Source: a virus
Direction: 5' to 3' (one strand)
Virus genome (UHGV): UHGV-0129253
Length of the DNA: 64,000 bases
Part shown: one piece after another, positions 45,297 through 62,937 of the stretch
Layout of the letters: each line of letters starts with the position of its first letter
Position numbering within the stretch: the first letter of the stretch is position 1
Translations under genes and position numbers: made by a program
The notes under the pieces: model-generated
The model's input: the letters and a program-made list of their open reading frames with translations, nothing else
Databases searched by the model: none
Told to the model about the DNA's origin: nothing

Positions 45297-48200
45297 ATGT
45301 GGTACAGGGAAGGTACTATCACATTTACACAGGGTAGCAATACTCTGGTTGGGGCAGGGACAGCCTGGAACGTAACAGCTAATGGTGTGTTGCCGGGGAT
45401 GATCGTCATTGGCCCCGACAATAAGCTGTATGAGATCAAGCGCGTAATAAGCGATACGAATATTGTTCTCTCAGAACCTTATACCGGCGAAACTCAGTCT
45501 GAAGTTCCGTGCCGAATCATTACGACCTATGAAGGCGACTTAACACAGTTTAGCGCGCGCTTTACTGCGCTAATGTCGCGTATGTCGGCTGATTCCAAGT
45601 CTATGCGCAGTTGGTTGACTGCGCTGGATGAGGTGACAATCGAGCGTGAAGACGGTACAGAAGTGGCCGTTAAGCCGCTGATGCAGATCGTCAACGAGCA
45701 CAACGAAAACGTTGAGTGGTATAAAAATAACACTGACGCGATTGATGCCGCTGGCGACAAAGCTCGTGAGGCGGCGGCCAGTGCTGCCGCAGCGGCAGAA
45801 AGCGCCAATACCGCTGGAGAAAAAGCCTCTCAAGCGTCTCAAAGTGCATCCGCTGCGGCATCCTCACAAAGTGCCGCAAGTGCGAGTGCAACTGCTGCGA
45901 AAAAATCTGAAACGAATGCTGCAGCGTCACAAAAATCTGCAGCCACTTCTGCATCCACCGCGACCACGAAAGCGTCAGAAGCTGCCACCTCAGCCAGAGA
46001 TGCGTCGGCTTCAAAAGAGGCGGCAAAATCATCAGAAACGAGCGCAGCCTCGAGCGCCAGTAGTGCAGCCTCCTCGGCAACAGCGGCAGGCAATTCCGCG
46101 AAGGCGGCAAAAACGTCCGAGACGAACGCCAGGTCTTCTGAAACGGCAGCGGGACAGAGTGCCTCGGCTGCGGCAGGCTCAAAAACAGCGGCTGCGTCGT
46201 CTGCCAGTGCCGCGTCAACAAGTGCCGGGCAGGCCTCAGCCAGTGCCACCGCCGCCGGAAAATCGGCAGAAAGTGCCGCATCGTCTGCTTCAACAGCCAC
46301 AACGAAGGCTGGCGAAGCCACTGAACAGGCCAGCGCAGCAGCGAGGTCTGCTTCCGCAGCGAAGACATCCGAAACGAACGCGAAAGCGTCGGAAACCAGC
46401 GCAGAATCCTCAAAAACGGCTGCCGCATCGTCCGCCAGTTCGGCGGCGTCATCGGCATCATCGGCGTCTGCTTCAAAAGATGAGGCGACCAGACAAGCGT
46501 CCGCAGCGAAGGGCAGCGCCACGACAGCATCCACGAAGGCGACAGAGGCAGCTGGCAGTGCGACGGCGGCAGCACAGAGCAAAAGTACGGCGGAATCCGC
46601 GGCAACGCGCGCCGAGACAGCGGCAAAACGGGCAGAGGATATTGCATCCGCCGTGGCGCTTGAGGATGCAAGTACGACGAAAAAGGGGATAGTACAGCTC
46701 AGCAGTGCGACCAACAGTACGTCTGAAACGCTGGCCGCAACGCCAAAAGCAGTTAAAGCAGCCAATGACAATGCGAATAGCAGGGTGCCATCTAACCGAA
46801 AAGTTAACGGAAAAGCACTGACTGCGGATATAACATTAACGCCGAAAGATATTGGTACTTTAAATTCAGTAACGATGTCTTTCTCTGGCGGGGCTGGGTG
46901 GTTCAAACTGGCTACGGTTACCATGCCACAAGCGAGTTCCATCGTTTACATCGCATTGATTGGTGGCGCTGGTTACAACGTCGGTTCCCCACATCAGGCA
47001 GGCATTTCAGAACTGGTTCTACGAGCAGGCAATGGAAACCCCAAAGGAATTACCGGGGCTTTGTGGAAGCGTACAGCCGTCGGATTAACGAATTTCGCCT
47101 GGATCAACACATCCGGCGATACATATGATATTTACGTTGAGATTGGCAATTATGCGACGAGTGTAAATATCCATTGGGATTGTACTGCAAATGCGTCAGT
47201 TTCTGTTTATACCTCGCCAACATATTCAGCGAGTAAGCCTTCCAGCGTTACCGATGGTGTTGTTTATACGATGTATAGCACACATCAGAAACCGACGCCG
47301 TTAGATATTGGAGCACTGCCAACAACCGGAGGAACAGTTTCAGGTCCGTTGTCTGTTACAGGTGGATTAACTGGTTCATTGAATGGTAATGCAAGTACAG
47401 CCACGAAATTGCAGACGGCAAGATCTATCGGTGGAGTTGTTTTCGACGGTTCTGCAAATATTAATTTGCCAGGTGTTAATACGACTGGTAATCAGAATAC
47501 AACGGGCAACGCTGCAACCGCTACAAAACTACAGACAGCGCGTACAATCAACGGTGTTAAGTTTGATGGTTCTGCGGACATAACGCTGACTCCTGCGAAC
47601 CTTGACGTATACAGCAAAAGCGAAATAGACAATAAAAAAGGGATGAGAAAATACACTTTTTCAGCGCCTGCAAATGCAGTAAGCGGTAAGTGGTATCCTA
47701 TAGTCTTTCGCCGATCTGGAGGCAGTACCGATGAATTAGCCTCACGAGTTGTGATAACTACTTATTCCTCAGCTGGCGGATACGCCATGAATAATTGTGA
47801 ATTTAATGGGTTTGTTATGCCTGGCGGTTGGTCTGATCGCGGTTCATATGCGGCTGGTTTTTTCTCAATATATTCTACTGCTGAGCGAGCTATACACTCG
47901 ATTATTTCAAGTGTGAAAGATGACGATTTGTGTAGTGTATTTTACGTTGAAGCCAGAGCATTCCCTATCAAGATATTTGCTGAGGAGGGCTTGAACGTAA
48001 TTGTTCCAACGGCTGATTATGCAGTTGGTCAAACCACTTATAAGTGGGGGGCAACTGATCCTTTATCAGAAAGTACGAATGCACAGATAATTTTGGACTT
48101 TAAAAATGGACGAGGTTATTACTGTTCACATCCATTTATTTCAAGTCTTTCAGGAAATGCTGCTACAGCAACGAAATTGCAGACTGCAAGAACTATCGGC

Positions 48201-50333
48201 GGCGTGGCCTTCGATGGATCTGCGAACATAAATTTGCCTGGTGTAAACACGGCAGGTAATCAGAATACAACGGGCAACGCGGCTACTGCTACGAAGTTGC
48301 AAACAGCGAGAAACATCAATGGTGTTAAGTTTGATGGCTCAGGCGATATCAACATTAATACACTGGTATCTCGTGGCCGAGTTACGGCGTTAAGCGGCTC
48401 TACTCAAGGCACTGCTGGCATTCAAATGTATGAGGCGTACAACAATAGCTACCCGACCATGTATGGCAACGTATTGCACATGAAAGGTGCGAGTGCTTCT
48501 GGTGAGGGCGAGATGCTTGTTGGCTGGAGCGGAACGGATGGTGCTCATGCACCGGTTTATGTTCGTTCACGCCGTGATACTTCGACAGCGAATTGGTCTG
48601 GTTGGGCGCAGGTCTATACCACTGCTCATAAACCCACAGCGAAAGATGTTGGGGCTGCACAGACGTTTAGCGCGTCATACAGTACTGGGGCTGGCAACTG
48701 GACTACCGCTGAATTTATCGCATGGCTGAAGGAGCGTGGTGCTTTCGCCGTACCGTATTGGATGATGAAAGGCTCTTGGTCATATGCCGACAATAAAATT
48801 ATCACTGATACAGGTGTCGGCAATATTTGTCTTGCTGGTGCGGTTATCGAGGTTTTAGGTCACGAAGGCGCAATGACCATCCGAGTTACTACGCCTACAA
48901 CGACAACCGGAGGTGGTATTGCCAGTGCTCAGTTCACCTATATTAATCACGGTAGCGCGTATGCCCCTGCCTGGCGCAGAGATTACAACACGACTCTCAA
49001 ACCCACTGCGGCTGATGTCGGTGCGTTGCCGAGCGGTGGCGGCACACTTTCCGGCGCACTCACATTATCTATGGCTGCGCCAAGTGTCCAGTTACGAGGG
49101 CAAGGTACGGACACCAGACAGTACATCATGGCTTACAGAACCGATGGCGCTACATCATGGTATGTGGGCAAGGCTAACAACGGCTCCGATAATGCGATGT
49201 TCTGGAACTATACCGGCTCCAACGGAATTGAATTGGCTGCCGATGGCAATGTGCGTATTAATGCGAAGGGTAAACAGTTTACGTTCGCAAACAATGGGAA
49301 CTTAGGTCTTGTTGCTTCGTTAGATCAGAGTTCAGTTCCACAGGGTACTTACCATCAAGTAGCTCTTAACACTGGCACTGTTGGTGGTAAATCGTACCTT
49401 CGAAAATTCCGCGGCGGCAACACAGACACCATTTGGCATGAGACGGTTCAGGGCGGCTTCCTTCGTTGGGCAACCGGCAATGCTGATGAGCAAGAAGAAC
49501 TGTCTATCAGTACTGGCTATGGTGTTCGAGCAAGAGGTGAAATCACTTCCCTTAGCGCCAATGGTCTAAGAGTGGCTTACGGGAATTACGGCTTCTTTAT
49601 TCGCAATGATGGCGGAACAACTTACTTCTTGCTGACTGCTTCTGGCGACAAGTTCGGAAGCTGGAATGCTTTGCGTCCAATGTACATTAACAACGCTTCA
49701 GGCGCGGTTACGATGGGGAACGGGTTGTCGCTTGCCGGTGGCTTAAATGTCACGAGCGGAAATATCCGAATCCCGACGTCGAGTACATCTTGGATCGACA
49801 TGAGAAACAATGCCGCTCTGTCTAACAGTTCTGCGGTTGCCACTTCCTCTGCATCGGCCATTATTCGTCAGGAGCACGCCGATCGTCATTATTTTGTTGG
49901 TGGTTTAGGCAACTCTCAGTTCGGGTTCTACATGATTAACAAGTCACGAACCGCGAACGGCACGGATGCGAACGCATACCTCCAGAATGACGGTACTTGG
50001 GTTTGCGGCGGTAATGGCAGCTTTAATGACGTTTATATCCGTTCTGACCGCCGTAGTAAGCGCAATATTCGCAAGATTGACCGGGCGCTCGACAAGCTGG
50101 AGCAGATCGAAGGTGTTCTCTACGAGATTCAGGTCTGTGGCCGTTATGAGCAGTCTGGTGGCCTCATCGCTCAGGATGTCCAGAATGTTCAACCTGAACT
50201 GGTAACGGTCGACCATAACGATCAGTCAGGAGAGCCTCGTCTGCGTCTTAACTACAACGGCGTTATCGGCATGTTGGTTGAGGCTGTCAAAGAGTTGCGC
50301 GAGGAAGTGCGCGAACTGAAGGCAAAAATGTAA
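45297..50333 (+). CDS. Side tail fibre with Ala/Ser-rich region, tail-fibre repeats and C-terminal S74 intramolecular chaperone domain
   Basis: Repeats GNAATATKLQTAR.I.GV.FDGS; C-terminal SDRRSKRNI...LREEVRELKAKM typical of endosialidase-type chaperone. Confidence 0.8.
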   Translation: MWYREGTITFTQGSNTLVGAGTAWNVTANGVLPGMIVIGPDNKLYEIKRVISDTNIVLSEPYTGETQSEVPCRIITTYEGDLTQFSARFTALMSRMSADSKSMRSWLTALDEVTIEREDGTEVAVKPLMQIVNEHNENVEWYKNNTDAIDAAGDKAREAAASAAAAAESANTAGEKASQASQSASAAASSQSAASASATAAKKSETNAAASQKSAATSASTATTKASEAATSARDASASKEAAKSSETSAASSASSAASSATAAGNSAKAAKTSETNARSSETAAGQSASAAAGSKTAAASSASAASTSAGQASASATAAGKSAESAASSASTATTKAGEATEQASAAARSASAAKTSETNAKASETSAESSKTAAASSASSAASSASSASASKDEATRQASAAKGSATTASTKATEAAGSATAAAQSKSTAESAATRAETAAKRAEDIASAVALEDASTTKKGIVQLSSATNSTSETLAATPKAVKAANDNANSRVPSNRKVNGKALTADITLTPKDIGTLNSVTMSFSGGAGWFKLATVTMPQASSIVYIALIGGAGYNVGSPHQAGISELVLRAGNGNPKGITGALWKRTAVGLTNFAWINTSGDTYDIYVEIGNYATSVNIHWDCTANASVSVYTSPTYSASKPSSVTDGVVYTMYSTHQKPTPLDIGALPTTGGTVSGPLSVTGGLTGSLNGNASTATKLQTARSIGGVVFDGSANINLPGVNTTGNQNTTGNAATATKLQTARTINGVKFDGSADITLTPANLDVYSKSEIDNKKGMRKYTFSAPANAVSGKWYPIVFRRSGGSTDELASRVVITTYSSAGGYAMNNCEFNGFVMPGGWSDRGSYAAGFFSIYSTAERAIHSIISSVKDDDLCSVFYVEARAFPIKIFAEEGLNVIVPTADYAVGQTTYKWGATDPLSESTNAQIILDFKNGRGYYCSHPFISSLSGNAATATKLQTARTIGGVAFDGSANINLPGVNTAGNQNTTGNAATATKLQTARNINGVKFDGSGDININTLVSRGRVTALSGSTQGTAGIQMYEAYNNSYPTMYGNVLHMKGASASGEGEMLVGWSGTDGAHAPVYVRSRRDTSTANWSGWAQVYTTAHKPTAKDVGAAQTFSASYSTGAGNWTTAEFIAWLKERGAFAVPYWMMKGSWSYADNKIITDTGVGNICLAGAVIEVLGHEGAMTIRVTTPTTTTGGGIASAQFTYINHGSAYAPAWRRDYNTTLKPTAADVGALPSGGGTLSGALTLSMAAPSVQLRGQGTDTRQYIMAYRTDGATSWYVGKANNGSDNAMFWNYTGSNGIELAADGNVRINAKGKQFTFANNGNLGLVASLDQSSVPQGTYHQVALNTGTVGGKSYLRKFRGGNTDTIWHETVQGGFLRWATGNADEQEELSISTGYGVRARGEITSLSANGLRVAYGNYGFFIRNDGGTTYFLLTASGDKFGSWNALRPMYINNASGAVTMGNGLSLAGGLNVTSGNIRIPTSSTSWIDMRNNAALSNSSAVATSSASAIIRQEHADRHYFVGGLGNSQFGFYMINKSRTANGTDANAYLQNDGTWVCGGNGSFNDVYIRSDRRSKRNIRKIDRALDKLEQIEGVLYEIQVCGRYEQSGGLIAQDVQNVQPELVTVDHNDQSGEPRLRLNYNGVIGMLVEAVKELREEVRELKAKM
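45760..46650 (+). repeat. Low-complexity Ala/Ser/Thr-rich coding repeat (GC-rich) inside the tail fibre gene
   Basis: Generates long spurious ORFs in other frames and on the minus strand. Confidence 0.6.
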
Positions 50334-52707: not shown

Positions 52708-53229
52708 TTATTCTTCGAACAATTTTTCGATAGATTTTGTTGGATAGAACAAAGAACGATCGTTGTTACCAACCAGCTGGATAAAGCCCAAACTTTTATA
52801 AAACGCCCTGGCTTTATCGTTCAACGCCTCAACGAAAAGCCCATGAATGCCTACCGCAAGAGATGCATTGTACACAACACGCATTGCGTGAGTTACAAGC
52901 ATTGAGCCAAGCCCCTGACCTTGAAGAGATTTGTCCAAAGCCAGTCTGCCTAAAGTGATACTTGGGACATTCCGATAAGGCACTTTCTTTTGCTGACTCT
53001 TTGAAGGTAAGGTTTCTTTCTCAAAGCAGCTGCCTGACAAAGTGTAATAACCTAATACCTTTGGTATTTCTTCTTTAGTGCAAAGCACATAAGCGCGAAG
53101 AATTTTTCCTTCATGCTGTCTTTTTAAGTGGTTGGTCAAAAATGCGTTTAGTGACTCTTCGCCGCAATCAAAACCGTTTAGATCATAATCGTTCTCTCCA
53201 GAGAAAATCTCGATCGTCGTATTGCTCAC
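52708..53229 (-). CDS. GNAT-family toxin (TacT/AtaT/KacT-like type II TA toxin)
   Basis: 173 aa GNAT; paired with upstream DUF1778-type antitoxin. Confidence 0.75.
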   Translation of the reverse strand: MSNTTIEIFSGENDYDLNGFDCGEESLNAFLTNHLKRQHEGKILRAYVLCTKEEIPKVLGYYTLSGSCFEKETLPSKSQQKKVPYRNVPSITLGRLALDKSLQGQGLGSMLVTHAMRVVYNASLAVGIHGLFVEALNDKARAFYKSLGFIQLVGNNDRSLFYPTKSIEKLFEE

Positions 53230-53236
53230 GAGTAAA

Positions 53237-53506
53237 TTACTCCATGCTTTTCAGACGATTGGCAGCTCGTTTCAGCTTGTCGTTCGGTGCCGGAGGATTG
53301 CTTATAGCATCCATAACCAGATTCCAGGACTCTTCACTTAGAACCAGTCTACGGTGTTGCTCTATCACCTTCACGGCACGTTCGGATGCACTGCTAACCA
53401 TGAACTGGGTAATGCTCTGGTTAGACATTGCGGCAGCTTCCTCGATGATGCTTTTATCGTCATCGGTTAATCTCAAATCGATGCGCTGCTTTTTCAGTGC
53501 GGACAT
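53237..53506 (-). CDS. DUF1778 / RHH antitoxin (TacA/AtaR-like)
   Basis: 89 aa, 7 nt upstream of the GNAT gene on the same strand. Confidence 0.75.
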   Translation of the reverse strand: MSALKKQRIDLRLTDDDKSIIEEAAAMSNQSITQFMVSSASERAVKVIEQHRRLVLSEESWNLVMDAISNPPAPNDKLKRAANRLKSME

Positions 53507-53825: not shown

Positions 53826-54494
53826 ATGACCAAGATCTTTGTGGTTGGCGGCACAAAGGGCGGGCCTGGCAAATCCACTGTTGCCCAGCAAATTGCCGTT
53901 TGCCTGAAAGTCAAAAAGAAGAAGAAGGTTTATATCACTGATATAGATATTCAGCGCACGACAACAAGCTGGTGTGAAGACCGTAGACAGAACGAAGACC
54001 TTGAGCTGATTCCTTTTGCATACGTTCAGGATGACATCATTAAGCACCTAAAATCGCTTCAGGGTAGAGCTGAGTTTGTAGTGGTAGATGCTGGTGGCTT
54101 TGACTCCGAAATTCAGCGACAAGCGATGCTGATGGCCGACGTTATCATTATCCCGCTTCGTCCCAAGCGTCGTGATTTGAAATCTCTGCGTGACATTGAT
54201 CCTATTATCGACAATGTTCGTAATGTAAACGATAAAGTGAAGGTCCGCGCGGTCATGAACCAGTGCCCGGCTTTGCCATCACAAGTGTCTCGCATTCTGG
54301 CGGCTAAAGAGATTGTTGAGACGTTTGGCATCGAGTCTGCGCCAGTCAATTTATATAACCGCAACGTCTATGATGATGCGGAAGAGTCTGGTCGTTCTAT
54401 CTTTGAAATGACCGGTAGCGAGCGCGACAAAAAGGCGGAAGCCGAGTTTGAAGAATTTGTAGATTATCTGTTGAGTCTGGAGGAAGAAGAATAA
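53826..54494 (+). CDS. ParA/ParF-type partition ATPase
   Basis: Deviant Walker A GGTKGGPGKST; 222 aa. Confidence 0.8.
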   Translation: MTKIFVVGGTKGGPGKSTVAQQIAVCLKVKKKKKVYITDIDIQRTTTSWCEDRRQNEDLELIPFAYVQDDIIKHLKSLQGRAEFVVVDAGGFDSEIQRQAMLMADVIIIPLRPKRRDLKSLRDIDPIIDNVRNVNDKVKVRAVMNQCPALPSQVSRILAAKEIVETFGIESAPVNLYNRNVYDDAEESGRSIFEMTGSERDKKAEAEFEEFVDYLLSLEEEE

Positions 54495-54853
54495 TGTCCA
54501 TGAAAATGGGTGACCTAGCAAAGCGCAAAGAGCCTGATGCACCGGCCAAGAACACAACTCCTTTGCGCCAACCAGTCAGACCACAGGGACGCCCGACTCG
54601 TGGCAAAGAGAAAATTAAAAGCCGCACAATGTCACTGGAGGACGAATACTTCGAACTGCTGGAAATGATGAAGTTCATCCCTCGTTTCGAGAAGTTCACC
54701 CGTTCTGACGTGATTCGCGCAGCCATTTTCCATCTGGCAGAGAAGTCACCGCAGGAAATCGAGGACATCGTGAAATTGAATGAGGCGATCACCGCTGCCG
54801 ATGTCACGATGCGTACCGATGAAATCAAACGAGAGTTGATGAAGAAAGGTTAA
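54494..54853 (+). CDS. Putative partition partner (ParG/ParB-like, basic N-terminus)
   Basis: 119 aa, start overlapping ParA-like stop. Confidence 0.5.
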   Translation: MSMKMGDLAKRKEPDAPAKNTTPLRQPVRPQGRPTRGKEKIKSRTMSLEDEYFELLEMMKFIPRFEKFTRSDVIRAAIFHLAEKSPQEIEDIVKLNEAITAADVTMRTDEIKRELMKKG

Positions 54854-54858
54854 AAATC

Positions 54859-54889
54859 ATGCATTGGCGCGTACATTGCGCCAATGCAT
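54859..54889. terminator. Perfect palindrome ATGCATTGGCGC-gtacatt-GCGCCAATGCAT between convergent genes
   Basis: 12-bp arms; bidirectional terminator or centromere-like site. Confidence 0.45.
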
Positions 54890-54905
54890 AACTACAGTGT
54901 CAGCT

Positions 54906-55673
54906 TTATGCCGCGCTAACACTATGTTCAGTCCTAACCACCCCAACCTTCACAAAAGGGCTACCGTAGCTTGGTGGCTTCTTGATTAATTTGCCTACAT
55001 ACAGTTTTCTAATATGCTCATCGGCTATTCTGCCAACAAATTCATAACGTTTTGTGTCGGGGCCAAGAGCTATATCCCTTGTAAAGTACTGCTGAGAACC
55101 GGCTTTGACCCAGCATTCAATCTGATAAACTTCCATTATTAGCCCACCATATGTAGCGTAGGCATATTTGAGATTCTCGTCTCTTGGAACCTTTGCCCAT
55201 ACGCCACGCGTAGCTTCATATAATGCCAGAGCGGACATTCCTGACTTGTAGGTGCTGTTTAGCAGGAAGGCAAGACCGGCGTGCTCAGGAGCAATTTCAG
55301 TTTCCTCTTGCAGCACTAAGTGATGGTAGGCGTCCAGTGATATTCTGCCCATCATGGAACCACTTCCTCGTACCTTATTCGTAAGCTCTCCGACCCCCAT
55401 AAGGTCGATGCATGTCGCCTCAACAAGTTTGGCTGTGGTTTCATCCATACCATGACGAAGAATATCTATGCCTAATTTTTTATTAGCCAAAAGTTCTTTG
55501 ATCCGCATGGATTTGGGAGAGTCATCGGGATACTTGATGTGATCGAGACAACGAGTCGATTTGCCTTTTCCTATGTAAAACGGTCTTTTCATCTTGTCTT
55601 CTGTATCATAGAGGCAGTAAACATAGTATTTAGCCTTATCCAATGATCTCGCGTATACCGATAAATCGTCCAT
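54906..55673 (-). CDS. GIY-YIG nuclease-domain protein
   Basis: N-terminal YYVYCLYD...RPFYIGKGKSTR motif; 255 aa. Confidence 0.6.
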   Translation of the reverse strand: MDDLSVYARSLDKAKYYVYCLYDTEDKMKRPFYIGKGKSTRCLDHIKYPDDSPKSMRIKELLANKKLGIDILRHGMDETTAKLVEATCIDLMGVGELTNKVRGSGSMMGRISLDAYHHLVLQEETEIAPEHAGLAFLLNSTYKSGMSALALYEATRGVWAKVPRDENLKYAYATYGGLIMEVYQIECWVKAGSQQYFTRDIALGPDTKRYEFVGRIADEHIRKLYVGKLIKKPPSYGSPFVKVGVVRTEHSVSAA

Positions 55674-55784
55674 TATTGCATCTCTTTGCTACTGACTAAT
55701 GCGTTCTATTTTACACATAAGTTTTTAATCAATTTAACAGGCTCAAAGTGTAGAGCTTCTGGGCGTCTAAGACGACAAGTTATG

Positions 55785-55839
55785 CCTGCTTCTGTATATA
55801 TAAATAATAAGTAACTTATTAAATATATACGGAAGCAGG
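55785..55839. repeat. 55-bp AT-rich long hairpin, copy 2 (identical to 22756-22810)
   Basis: Exact repeat read directly. Confidence 0.6.
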
Positions 55840-55922
55840 TCTTTTAAAAGACACCACCAGAACAACTCCCTTCCGTTTCCACTTCCAAAAACTGCCACCA
55901 GTCGCTATCATCCGCTCATCGT

Positions 55923-55944
55923 GATAAGTAAGTAACTACCTACC
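55923..55944. promoter_or_regulatory. Late-type motif GATAAGTAAGTAACTACCTACC
   Basis: Upstream of gene 55956. Confidence 0.35.
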
Positions 55945-55955
55945 AGGTGAGCCAC

Positions 55956-56696
55956 ATGAGCCAGATCTTTTTCGATACCATCGACAACGACCAGTACGAC
56001 TTCATGACAGAGTGGAATACCGCTGTTATGGACAAGTGGGTCGCTGAAAACATTGGTTTGTCGCGCTGTAAAGACGAGGCTGAACTCTTCGAGACGAAGT
56101 GGTTTGATTACCGCGACATGCATCCTCTCATGGCCACCTGTCTTTTTACGGAGGCATACAAACGTCAGTACTCAAATATCATGCTGACGCACGGTCGCGA
56201 ACACTTTGAAACAGCTCCGTTCACCACCGGGTTAAAACGCCTGCCTTATCAGGAGTTGTCGACTGCCAATAAAACGTCGCTATGGAAAGCGCGCCAGTTT
56301 GCGGATCGCTATTGCTGCTCATACGACTACTTTATCTCCACCGTTCTTTCCGCAGCTGCACGACGGCTGTGGGACAAGCTGCCGCGCCCACAGCATTTAT
56401 GGCAGCAAGAACTGATTGAGATATTCGAAGAGAAATTAGCCAGACGCGCAACAACCCGTCTGGATGACTCTCTGGTTAGCTTTAAGCATATGGGGGACAT
56501 GCAGTTCAACCCGATTCAGGAAAGCTATTTTGAGTGGATTCTGGAGCGTTTACGCACCATCCCTCGCAGCAAGCGCATACGCGCAATTTTCTCCGCTATC
56601 TGGCTAATGGAAATCGTTCCAGAGCGCCTTATTTCCGCCCACTTTCCAGAAGAACTGGAAGAAGCACGGCGGTTTATTGATCCCCTATCTAATTAA
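55956..56696 (+). CDS. Hypothetical protein, first gene of the replication module
   Basis: ATG 55956 (track gives GTG 55947). Confidence 0.45.
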   Translation: MSQIFFDTIDNDQYDFMTEWNTAVMDKWVAENIGLSRCKDEAELFETKWFDYRDMHPLMATCLFTEAYKRQYSNIMLTHGREHFETAPFTTGLKRLPYQELSTANKTSLWKARQFADRYCCSYDYFISTVLSAAARRLWDKLPRPQHLWQQELIEIFEEKLARRATTRLDDSLVSFKHMGDMQFNPIQESYFEWILERLRTIPRSKRIRAIFSAIWLMEIVPERLISAHFPEELEEARRFIDPLSN

Positions 56697-62731: not shown

Positions 62732-62937
62732 TTTTATGTATAAGATGACTTTGTTTTCGTTGAGACGCGACTGTTTGAACTTAAATACAAGTGCAAACGA
62801 AGAAGTCTATCTGGCAGTAGCCTAATAAGCCAAACACCAGCGAGGTCAGTTTCCAGCCTCGTTACCGAAATGGGACACACTGAGCGAGTGTGATTGCAGA
62901 ACGCAGGAGGGAACATTCATGTTCCCTCCGATGAAGT

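Follow-up and report, generated by a model that had tools for sequence, protein, structure and literature searches.

Gene and cassette at the partition-replication junction

The window, by which we mean the whole 64,000-nucleotide stretch of DNA that was analyzed, is an SSU5-like phage-plasmid of E. coli. Over the 3.5 kb surrounding the gene considered here, its identity to plasmid pM-199-4197 is 99.7% and that to Escherichia phage PhiR41_1 is 98%, and the flanks are 84% identical to Salmonella phage SSU5. PhiR41_1 has a copy of the gene with 99.6% identity. The gene order runs from holin/endolysin/spanin genes through a GNAT/TacA-type toxin-antitoxin pair, parA, and a parB-like gene to a gene coding for a GIY-YIG protein, beyond which lies the replication block. 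The preliminary description of this DNA had placed a 255-aa ORF at 54906..55673 on the minus strand, opposed to its neighbors between the partition and replication modules, and this placement holds: a ParA/ParB-like pair lies on one side and the replication block on the other, both on the plus strand. The features of the junction are as follows.

53826-54853, plus strand: ParA/ParB-like partition pair
54494..54853, plus strand: 119-aa gene 3' of parA, ParB-like by position, with its stop codon at the left slot border (ORF listing; homology end at 54851)
54852..55784, minus strand: variable cargo cassette of ~930 bp, comprising the gene along with the region upstream of it and a terminator (blastn, junction alignments)
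54852..54893, minus strand: terminator-like hairpin, a perfectly paired 12-bp stem (54859-54870 / 54878-54889) with GATTTTT after it on the minus strand (repeats and folding)
54906..55673, minus strand: CDS of a PD-T4-3/CMoRE-like two-domain nuclease, 255 aa (ATG start)
55674..55784, minus strand: cassette-borne upstream region with an RBS, AAGAGA (55686-55681), a -10-like TAAAAT (55713-55708), and an AT-rich stretch
55785..55839, no strand assigned: conserved AT-rich palindrome of 55 bp at the right slot border, followed by TCTTTT on the plus strand (inverted repeats and folding)
55947 onward, plus strand: replication block coding for a 249-aa replication-associated protein, a DnaB-like helicase, and a primase

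The ORF is a real gene and not an orphan GIY-YIG protein, and, judging from the sequence, chance is far exceeded as its explanation. The 255-aa protein is a full-length match to PHROG 5356 (function unknown; E=1e-99), and its 90% cluster, with 372 member sequences, has a 255-aa representative that is 100% identical to it and is named "LEM-3-like GIY-YIG domain-containing protein" by NCBI. In RefSeq, the gene goes under either this name or "hypothetical protein." An NCBIfam search with the 255-aa protein gave no match.

Comparison by blastn with phages Cyrano and SSU5 showed homology up to 54851 and again from 55775-55785 onward, thereby delimiting the cassette. Junction alignments yielded no target-site duplications or flanking repeats at its borders, and its GC content (0.43-0.46, versus 0.44-0.50 in the flanks) bears no foreign signature. 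The RBS lies 7 nt 5' of the ATG, and the terminator-like hairpin, detected by repeat finding and folding, lies 17 nt past the stop codon with a predicted RNA fold of -25.1 kcal/mol (z=-4.5). A simple promoter and terminator scan of 54400-56100 returned nothing, neither a consensus sigma-70 promoter nor this hairpin; the promoter is thus a putative one, since the scan gave no sigma-70 consensus. The 55-bp hairpin (dG -30.2 kcal/mol, z=-8.5), from the region of which the gene had been described as being transcribed, does exist, but it is an element of the backbone that lies outside the gene's cassette, 112 bp 5' of the ATG, and is conserved in SSU5, Cyrano, and a plasmid with an empty slot. Its role could be to terminate the parAB operon, to serve as a site for replication or partition, or to act as a landmark for recombination.

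Among 5,426 complete E. coli genomes, the cassette was found in 107 (~2%), always on plasmids, these being SSU5-like phage-plasmids, and at least one flank of the slot was matched in 264, again all on plasmids. The gene is therefore present in ~40% (107/264) of the E. coli elements with the backbone junction and is the commonest allele among those sampled. A DUF2971 gene replaces the cassette in 21 of the 5,426 genomes. Both flanks lie within 800 bp of each other in 6 of the 264, and the single one of these that was inspected, plasmid NZ_CP113488.1 (28537-29165), has an empty slot in which the parB stop is followed by ~30 bp and then the palindrome. The other sampled alleles are a KAP-family P-loop NTPase (on an O104:H4 plasmid) and two proteins of no known function, of 352 aa and 225 aa. 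Six alleles were sampled (the window slot, compared with the slot intervals L002:4348-5151, L003:4124-6036, L008:1803-1835, L014:4363-5421, L015:4354-6048, and L016:3132-3809), so that the slot has at least six states: the CMoRE-like gene, DUF2971, the KAP NTPase, the 352-aa protein, the 225-aa protein, and empty. The DUF2971 allele matches the PADLOC candidate defense family PDC-S31, and the KAP NTPase allele matches PDC-S49. Because the slot is empty or filled by differing genes in related elements, the interval between parB and the palindrome behaves as a cargo hotspot of SSU5-like phage-plasmids, and the 352-aa and 225-aa proteins are candidates for new single-gene defense functions. This arrangement is reminiscent of the cargo hotspots of temperate phages and phage-plasmids (P2/P4 and the accessory regions of P1 and SSU5), which likewise have mostly single-gene alternative cargo between fixed landmarks, with some alleles matching candidate defense families. 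We found no description of the parB-palindrome slot of SSU5-like elements in the literature searched.

Variation is also seen elsewhere in the window. Between the lysis genes and parA, a GNAT acetyltransferase toxin and a TacA/DUF1778 antitoxin (KacAT/TacAT-type) occupy 52708-53506 on the minus strand; this is a second variable slot, in which PhiR41_1, SSU5, and pIso00225_02 carry two unrelated hypothetical genes. In the closest plasmid, pM-199-4197, ISEcp1-blaCTX-M-199 is inserted (~3 kb) at window positions ~62786-62790, and since the window has no such insertion, it represents the uninterrupted version of an element in which an ESBL gene is found elsewhere. The only other divergence from pM-199-4197 is in the tail-fiber region (47573-49574), where there are gaps and the identity is 90%, versus 99% elsewhere over 33497-64000; this divergence is consistent with host-range swapping.

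Homology to PD-T4-3/CMoRE

Vassallo et al. discovered PD-T4-3 in E. coli ECOR68 in 2022 (PMC9519451). It shows activity in a native host, also E. coli (10.1101/2024.12.20.629700), and was structurally solved and renamed CMoRE by Liu et al. in 2026 (PMC12923530). This type IV restriction endonuclease, the product of a single gene, has an N-terminal GIY-YIG domain bearing a "GIYxY-YIG" motif and a C-terminal domain that binds 5hm-dCTP (5-hydroxymethyl-cytosine). It cuts only DNA containing 5hmC or 5ghmC, leaving C and 5mC DNA uncut, does so with a CN11/N9G geometry and 2-nt 3' overhangs, lacks strict sequence specificity, protects against T2, T4, and T6, and requires assembly into a homotetramer, a dimer of dimers, for its function (PMC12923530). 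Through sequence and structural analyses, we found that the window protein shares this two-domain organization along its full length.

55359..55673, minus strand: N-terminal GIY-YIG part of the CDS
54933..55355, minus strand: C-terminal domain (aa ~107-247), a homologue of the CMoRE domain that senses modification

The PADLOC PD-T4-3 HMM matches aa 11-231 (221 of the 255 aa; E=1.3e-23, 82 bits), and a phmmer search against all PDB sequences retrieved only 9U7U and 9U75, across both domains (aa 12-230; E=2e-15). BLASTP aligned the protein over 236 aa with a canonical E. coli CMoRE homologue at 33% identity. That homologue scores 464 bits on the PADLOC model, versus 78-98 bits for members of the clade to which the window protein belongs. 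An AlphaFold2 monomer model built from the family alignment (pLDDT 84, pTM 0.79) had as its best four Foldseek matches the crystal structures of PD-T4-3 (E=1e-11, probability 1.0). The whole-chain TM-score to these structures is low (0.39) because a flexible linker joins the two domains; the confidence of the model is low at this linker (aa 95-106), which is disordered in the CMoRE crystals (PMC12923530). On the basis of these searches, the window protein is almost certainly a homologue of CMoRE.

The catalytic set is intact. Pfam PF22945 (LEM-3-like GIY-YIG) matches aa 32-104 at 30.1 bits against a cutoff of 27 (E=5.5e-7), and the GIYxY-YIG motif is present as Y17-V-Y19 ... F-Y33-IG. In an alignment of 39 homologues with identities down to 50%, the residues Y17, Y19, Y33, R41, H45, E85, and N99 are invariant. 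These tyrosines align with Y17, Y19, and Y31 of CMoRE, and R41 and E85 align with its conserved arginine and glutamate, so that the features of the GIY-YIG superfamily, the fold together with the conserved Tyr, Tyr, Arg, Glu, and Asn, are all found. The nuclease signature that had been read from the N-terminal sequence is thereby borne out. The preliminary description had also named the absence of catalytic residues from a proper alignment as the finding that would speak against it; the full set is present in the 39 homologues, with all seven residues invariant.

Like the CMoRE proteins of E. coli ECOR68, O157:H7, and APEC O1 (PDB 9U75, 9U7U, 9U7Z, and 9U8D), the window protein is the ~255-aa product of a single gene and combines the GIYxY-YIG motif plus the conserved Arg and Glu with a flexible linker and a homologous C-terminal sensor domain. 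V92 of the CMoRE intradimer interface corresponds to V84, and R80 corresponds to R73. It is a single-component system in that the cassette holds one gene, for which it supplies an RBS and a terminator, and the chromosomal relatives of the gene are solitary. In contrast, the dimer-interface residue L96 of CMoRE is replaced by an invariant cysteine (C88) throughout the window clade, the β1-β2 loop is 2 aa longer in the window protein, and the window gene resides on a phage-plasmid, whereas CMoRE resides on a chromosome or in a prophage. With 23-33% identity, the window protein belongs to a separate sister clade. A precedent for the retention of function across a large sequence distance is the divergent family member PD-T4-3Capno, a modification-dependent nuclease described by Rodriguez-Rodriguez et al. 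in 2025 that also cuts Mu DNA containing carbamoylmethyl-adenine (PMC12366544). At 48% identity to the E. coli prototype (PMC12366544), it lies within the range of the canonical clade.

Sister clade, acidic lid, and C-terminal sensor domain

A joint alignment of homologues of the window protein (288 matches) and of canonical CMoRE (6,577 matches, obtained with an E. coli CMoRE gene on a 44-kb plasmid as the query) separated into two discrete clades, with mean identities of 61-65% within each and 28% (range, 23-33%) between them. The most conspicuous difference is in the loop between helices α2 and α3 of the GIY-YIG domain.

55500..55538, minus strand: α2-α3 loop, aa 46-58, IKYPDDSPKSMR, short and nonacidic, at the position of the acidic lid of CMoRE (loop statistics)

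In CMoRE, this loop is an autoinhibitory lid that lies over the active site and blocks cutting of unmodified DNA, and replacement of its four acidic residues with alanine results in cleavage of ordinary DNA and toxicity (PMC12923530). In the AlphaFold2 model of the window protein, helices at aa 41-47 and 53-63 lie on either side of the equivalent loop, which has two acidic and three basic residues and a net charge of about +1. Throughout the window clade, the loop has a fixed length of 12 aa and a net charge of +0.4, in contrast to a mean of 15.8 aa and a net charge of -3.0 in the canonical clade, the E. coli members of which have a run of four acidic residues; the window-clade loop is thus ~4 residues shorter on average. 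An inserted, negatively charged α2-α3 loop is accordingly found neither in the window protein nor in its clade. Liu et al. regard the lid as a hallmark of the family that occurs in "most," not all, members (PMC12923530); on the loop data, therefore, the window protein displays one of their two hallmarks, the GIYxY-YIG motif, and lacks the other. Because the acidic autoinhibitory loop is absent, both the self-restraint and the specificity of the protein may differ from those of the solved enzymes. The gene is evidently nontoxic in its native setting, as it is kept intact in 135 plasmids of a plasmid collection at 99-100% protein identity.

The C-terminal half had been described as a ~170-aa domain of unknown function. 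It is in fact a domain of ~140-150 aa that has the same fold as the modification-sensing domain of CMoRE, which was the outcome of the structure and HMM searches that had been proposed for it. The sensor domains of the two clades are ~22-27% identical and share conserved core residues. A profile built from both clades retrieved 2,558 clusters among 1.84 billion representative proteins, in which the sensor domain occurs in ~250-aa GIY-YIG fusions and is also fused to Ser/Thr protein kinase domains, a Swt1-like HEPN domain, an SRA domain, or an HTH domain. Pfam searches with those fusion proteins gave no match over the stretch covered by the sensor profile. Other modification readers and modification-dependent enzymes, namely, the PvuRts1I/AbaSI family, VcaM4I, the McrB N-terminal domains, and the SRA/EVE/YTH-type readers, differ in that the nuclease is of the PD-(D/E)xK or HNH type, whereas here it is a GIY-YIG domain. 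The resemblance of the sensor in the predicted model to their reader domains is at the edge of significance, with no detectable sequence similarity; the scores are weak but consistent, and they sit uneasily with the published statement that there is no structural homologue (PMC12923530).

Deriving the specificity of the window protein from the alignment was considered and rejected. The sole named contact of CMoRE with 5hmC is Y127's main-chain oxygen in the interdomain linker region (PMC12923530), and this region aligns poorly with the window protein in BLASTP; as the contact is made by a backbone atom in a poorly aligned region, specificity cannot be read from the sequence. That the substrate is specifically 5hmC/5ghmC is a tentative proposal, to which we give slightly less than an even chance in view of the low sensor identity between the clades and the cleavage of Mu DNA by the Capnocytophaga homologue. 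It is also possible, if less probable, that the protein is a nuclease of the same fold and type IV-like behavior that would recognize a modification different from or broader than 5hmC/5ghmC and would restrain itself without an acidic lid. The divergence of the C-terminal domains, the missing lid, the plasticity of PD-T4-3Capno, and the size of a sensor family that has been coupled to many other effectors all point in this direction, and nothing counts directly against it; the conserved core residues of the sensor are common to both clades. Such a difference in specificity is a refinement of the type IV restriction reading developed below and does not contradict it.

Proposed function and competing explanations

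Clade members that are 73-76% identical are found as solitary chromosomal genes, located near mutS and rpoS in Providencia and between a DUF5384 gene and guaA in Salmonella; a 54%-identical relative adjoins metH in Shewanella. They sit among housekeeping genes and not in obvious defense islands, and their distribution fits a self-sufficient single-gene function. In E. coli plasmids, the only other PD-T4-3-like matches seen were canonical copies on ~44-47-kb plasmids. For the SSU5 clade of E. coli/Shigella, PD-T4-3 was reported from DefenseFinder in a preprint that deals with clinical phage-plasmids (10.1101/2025.09.12.675607), and the gene so called is very probably the one described here. A literature search on GIY-YIG in conjunction with SSU5 or phage-plasmids found no paper that describes it.

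Two further occurrences of the family were encountered. Jumbo phages of Serratia and Pectobacterium (e.g., Serratia phage Moabite; MK994515.1, 6439-7125) code for full-length homologues that are ~28% identical over aa 12-236 and bear the annotation of GIY-YIG or homing endonuclease, and a lytic phage with a CMoRE-like enzyme might use it against competitor phages with modified DNA. In E. coli plasmid NZ_CP081704.1 (878-4729 of the extracted locus L004), a 44-kb element with an integrase gene and phage tail/baseplate genes nearby, a canonical CMoRE gene adjoins a type II restriction endonuclease and cytosine methyltransferase pair, and modification-dependent and modification-blocked restriction are thereby combined in one small island.

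The window protein has full-length homology to CMoRE, a common fold, and an intact catalytic set, and its gene lies in a self-contained cassette in a polymorphic slot. For this protein, we infer nuclease activity, modification dependence, the modification recognized, the oligomeric state, and a defense phenotype. We consider it probable that it is a modification-dependent (type IV) restriction endonuclease that consists of one protein, belongs to the PD-T4-3/CMoRE family, and serves as swappable cargo of an SSU5-like phage-plasmid, and its characterization as a modification-dependent defense nuclease seems likely to hold; its most likely role would be the restriction of incoming phages with hypermodified DNA. 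By homology to the characterized enzymes, the C-terminal domain would bind DNA bearing a hypermodified base (5hmC or glucosyl-hmC in those enzymes), the N-terminal GIY-YIG domain would cut the bound DNA, and the unmodified DNA of the host and of the phage-plasmid would be spared. Because modified DNA would be cut and unmodified DNA spared, the carrier cell or lysogen would gain protection against phages whose genomes are modified, be they of the T-even type or others. No hydroxymethylase or glucosyltransferase is present among the annotated products of the closest plasmid over the span of the window. The proposal agrees with an earlier suggestion of a single-gene nuclease effector in defense, as the protein is a full-length homologue of the experimentally validated single-gene PD-T4-3/CMoRE; the role in host takeover that had been suggested alongside it found no support. 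Against the restriction reading are the identity of only 23-33%, the score of 82 versus 464 bits, the missing lid, the lack of a consensus promoter, and the location of the chromosomal relatives outside obvious defense islands, and our literature search found no experimentally tested member of the window clade.

An explanation that we regard as unlikely is that the nuclease serves the life cycle of the phage-plasmid itself or its competition with other elements, for instance, in the breakdown of host DNA during lytic growth (as in the case of T4 EndoII), in the exclusion of rival plasmids, or as an addiction-type toxin, and is not a modification-dependent antiphage enzyme. The gene is dispensable, as it is present in only ~40% of the elements sharing the backbone junction; its intact retention in 135 plasmids argues against constitutive toxicity; the cassette has no partner antitoxin ORF; and the sensor domain is conserved with CMoRE. 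Very improbable is a free-standing GIY-YIG homing endonuclease (a homing endonuclease was also proposed in the preliminary description), which would cut the gene-less parB-rep allele of related phage-plasmids and whose gene would be copied into it during repair: a CMoRE sensor domain makes up the entire C-terminal half, unlike in I-TevI and the T4 SegA-G homing endonucleases; no known DNA-binding domain model matches, since Pfam at E<=1 gives the GIY-YIG domain alone; the Providencia, Salmonella, and Shewanella relatives occupy unrelated loci with no single conserved target, which argues against an enzyme tied to the parB-rep site; the slot mostly holds unrelated cargo, its flanks lying within 800 bp in at most 6 of 264 genomes; and the characterized relatives lack strict sequence specificity.

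The type IV restriction reading provides a concrete and testable function for a gene that RefSeq and PHROGs leave without an assigned one. The parB-palindrome slot is, moreover, a compact place in which to seek more single-gene defense candidates, and the missing acidic lid is a natural variant with which the published model of autoinhibition can be tested. If the lid-less clade reads another modification or a broader range of them, it would add a new class of specificity to the GIY-YIG type IV restriction enzymes and would be a possible reagent for the mapping of modified bases. If the proposed function is true, widespread elements, some of which carry ESBL genes, would shield their hosts from T-even-like phages, which would be relevant both to phage therapy and to the persistence of such elements.
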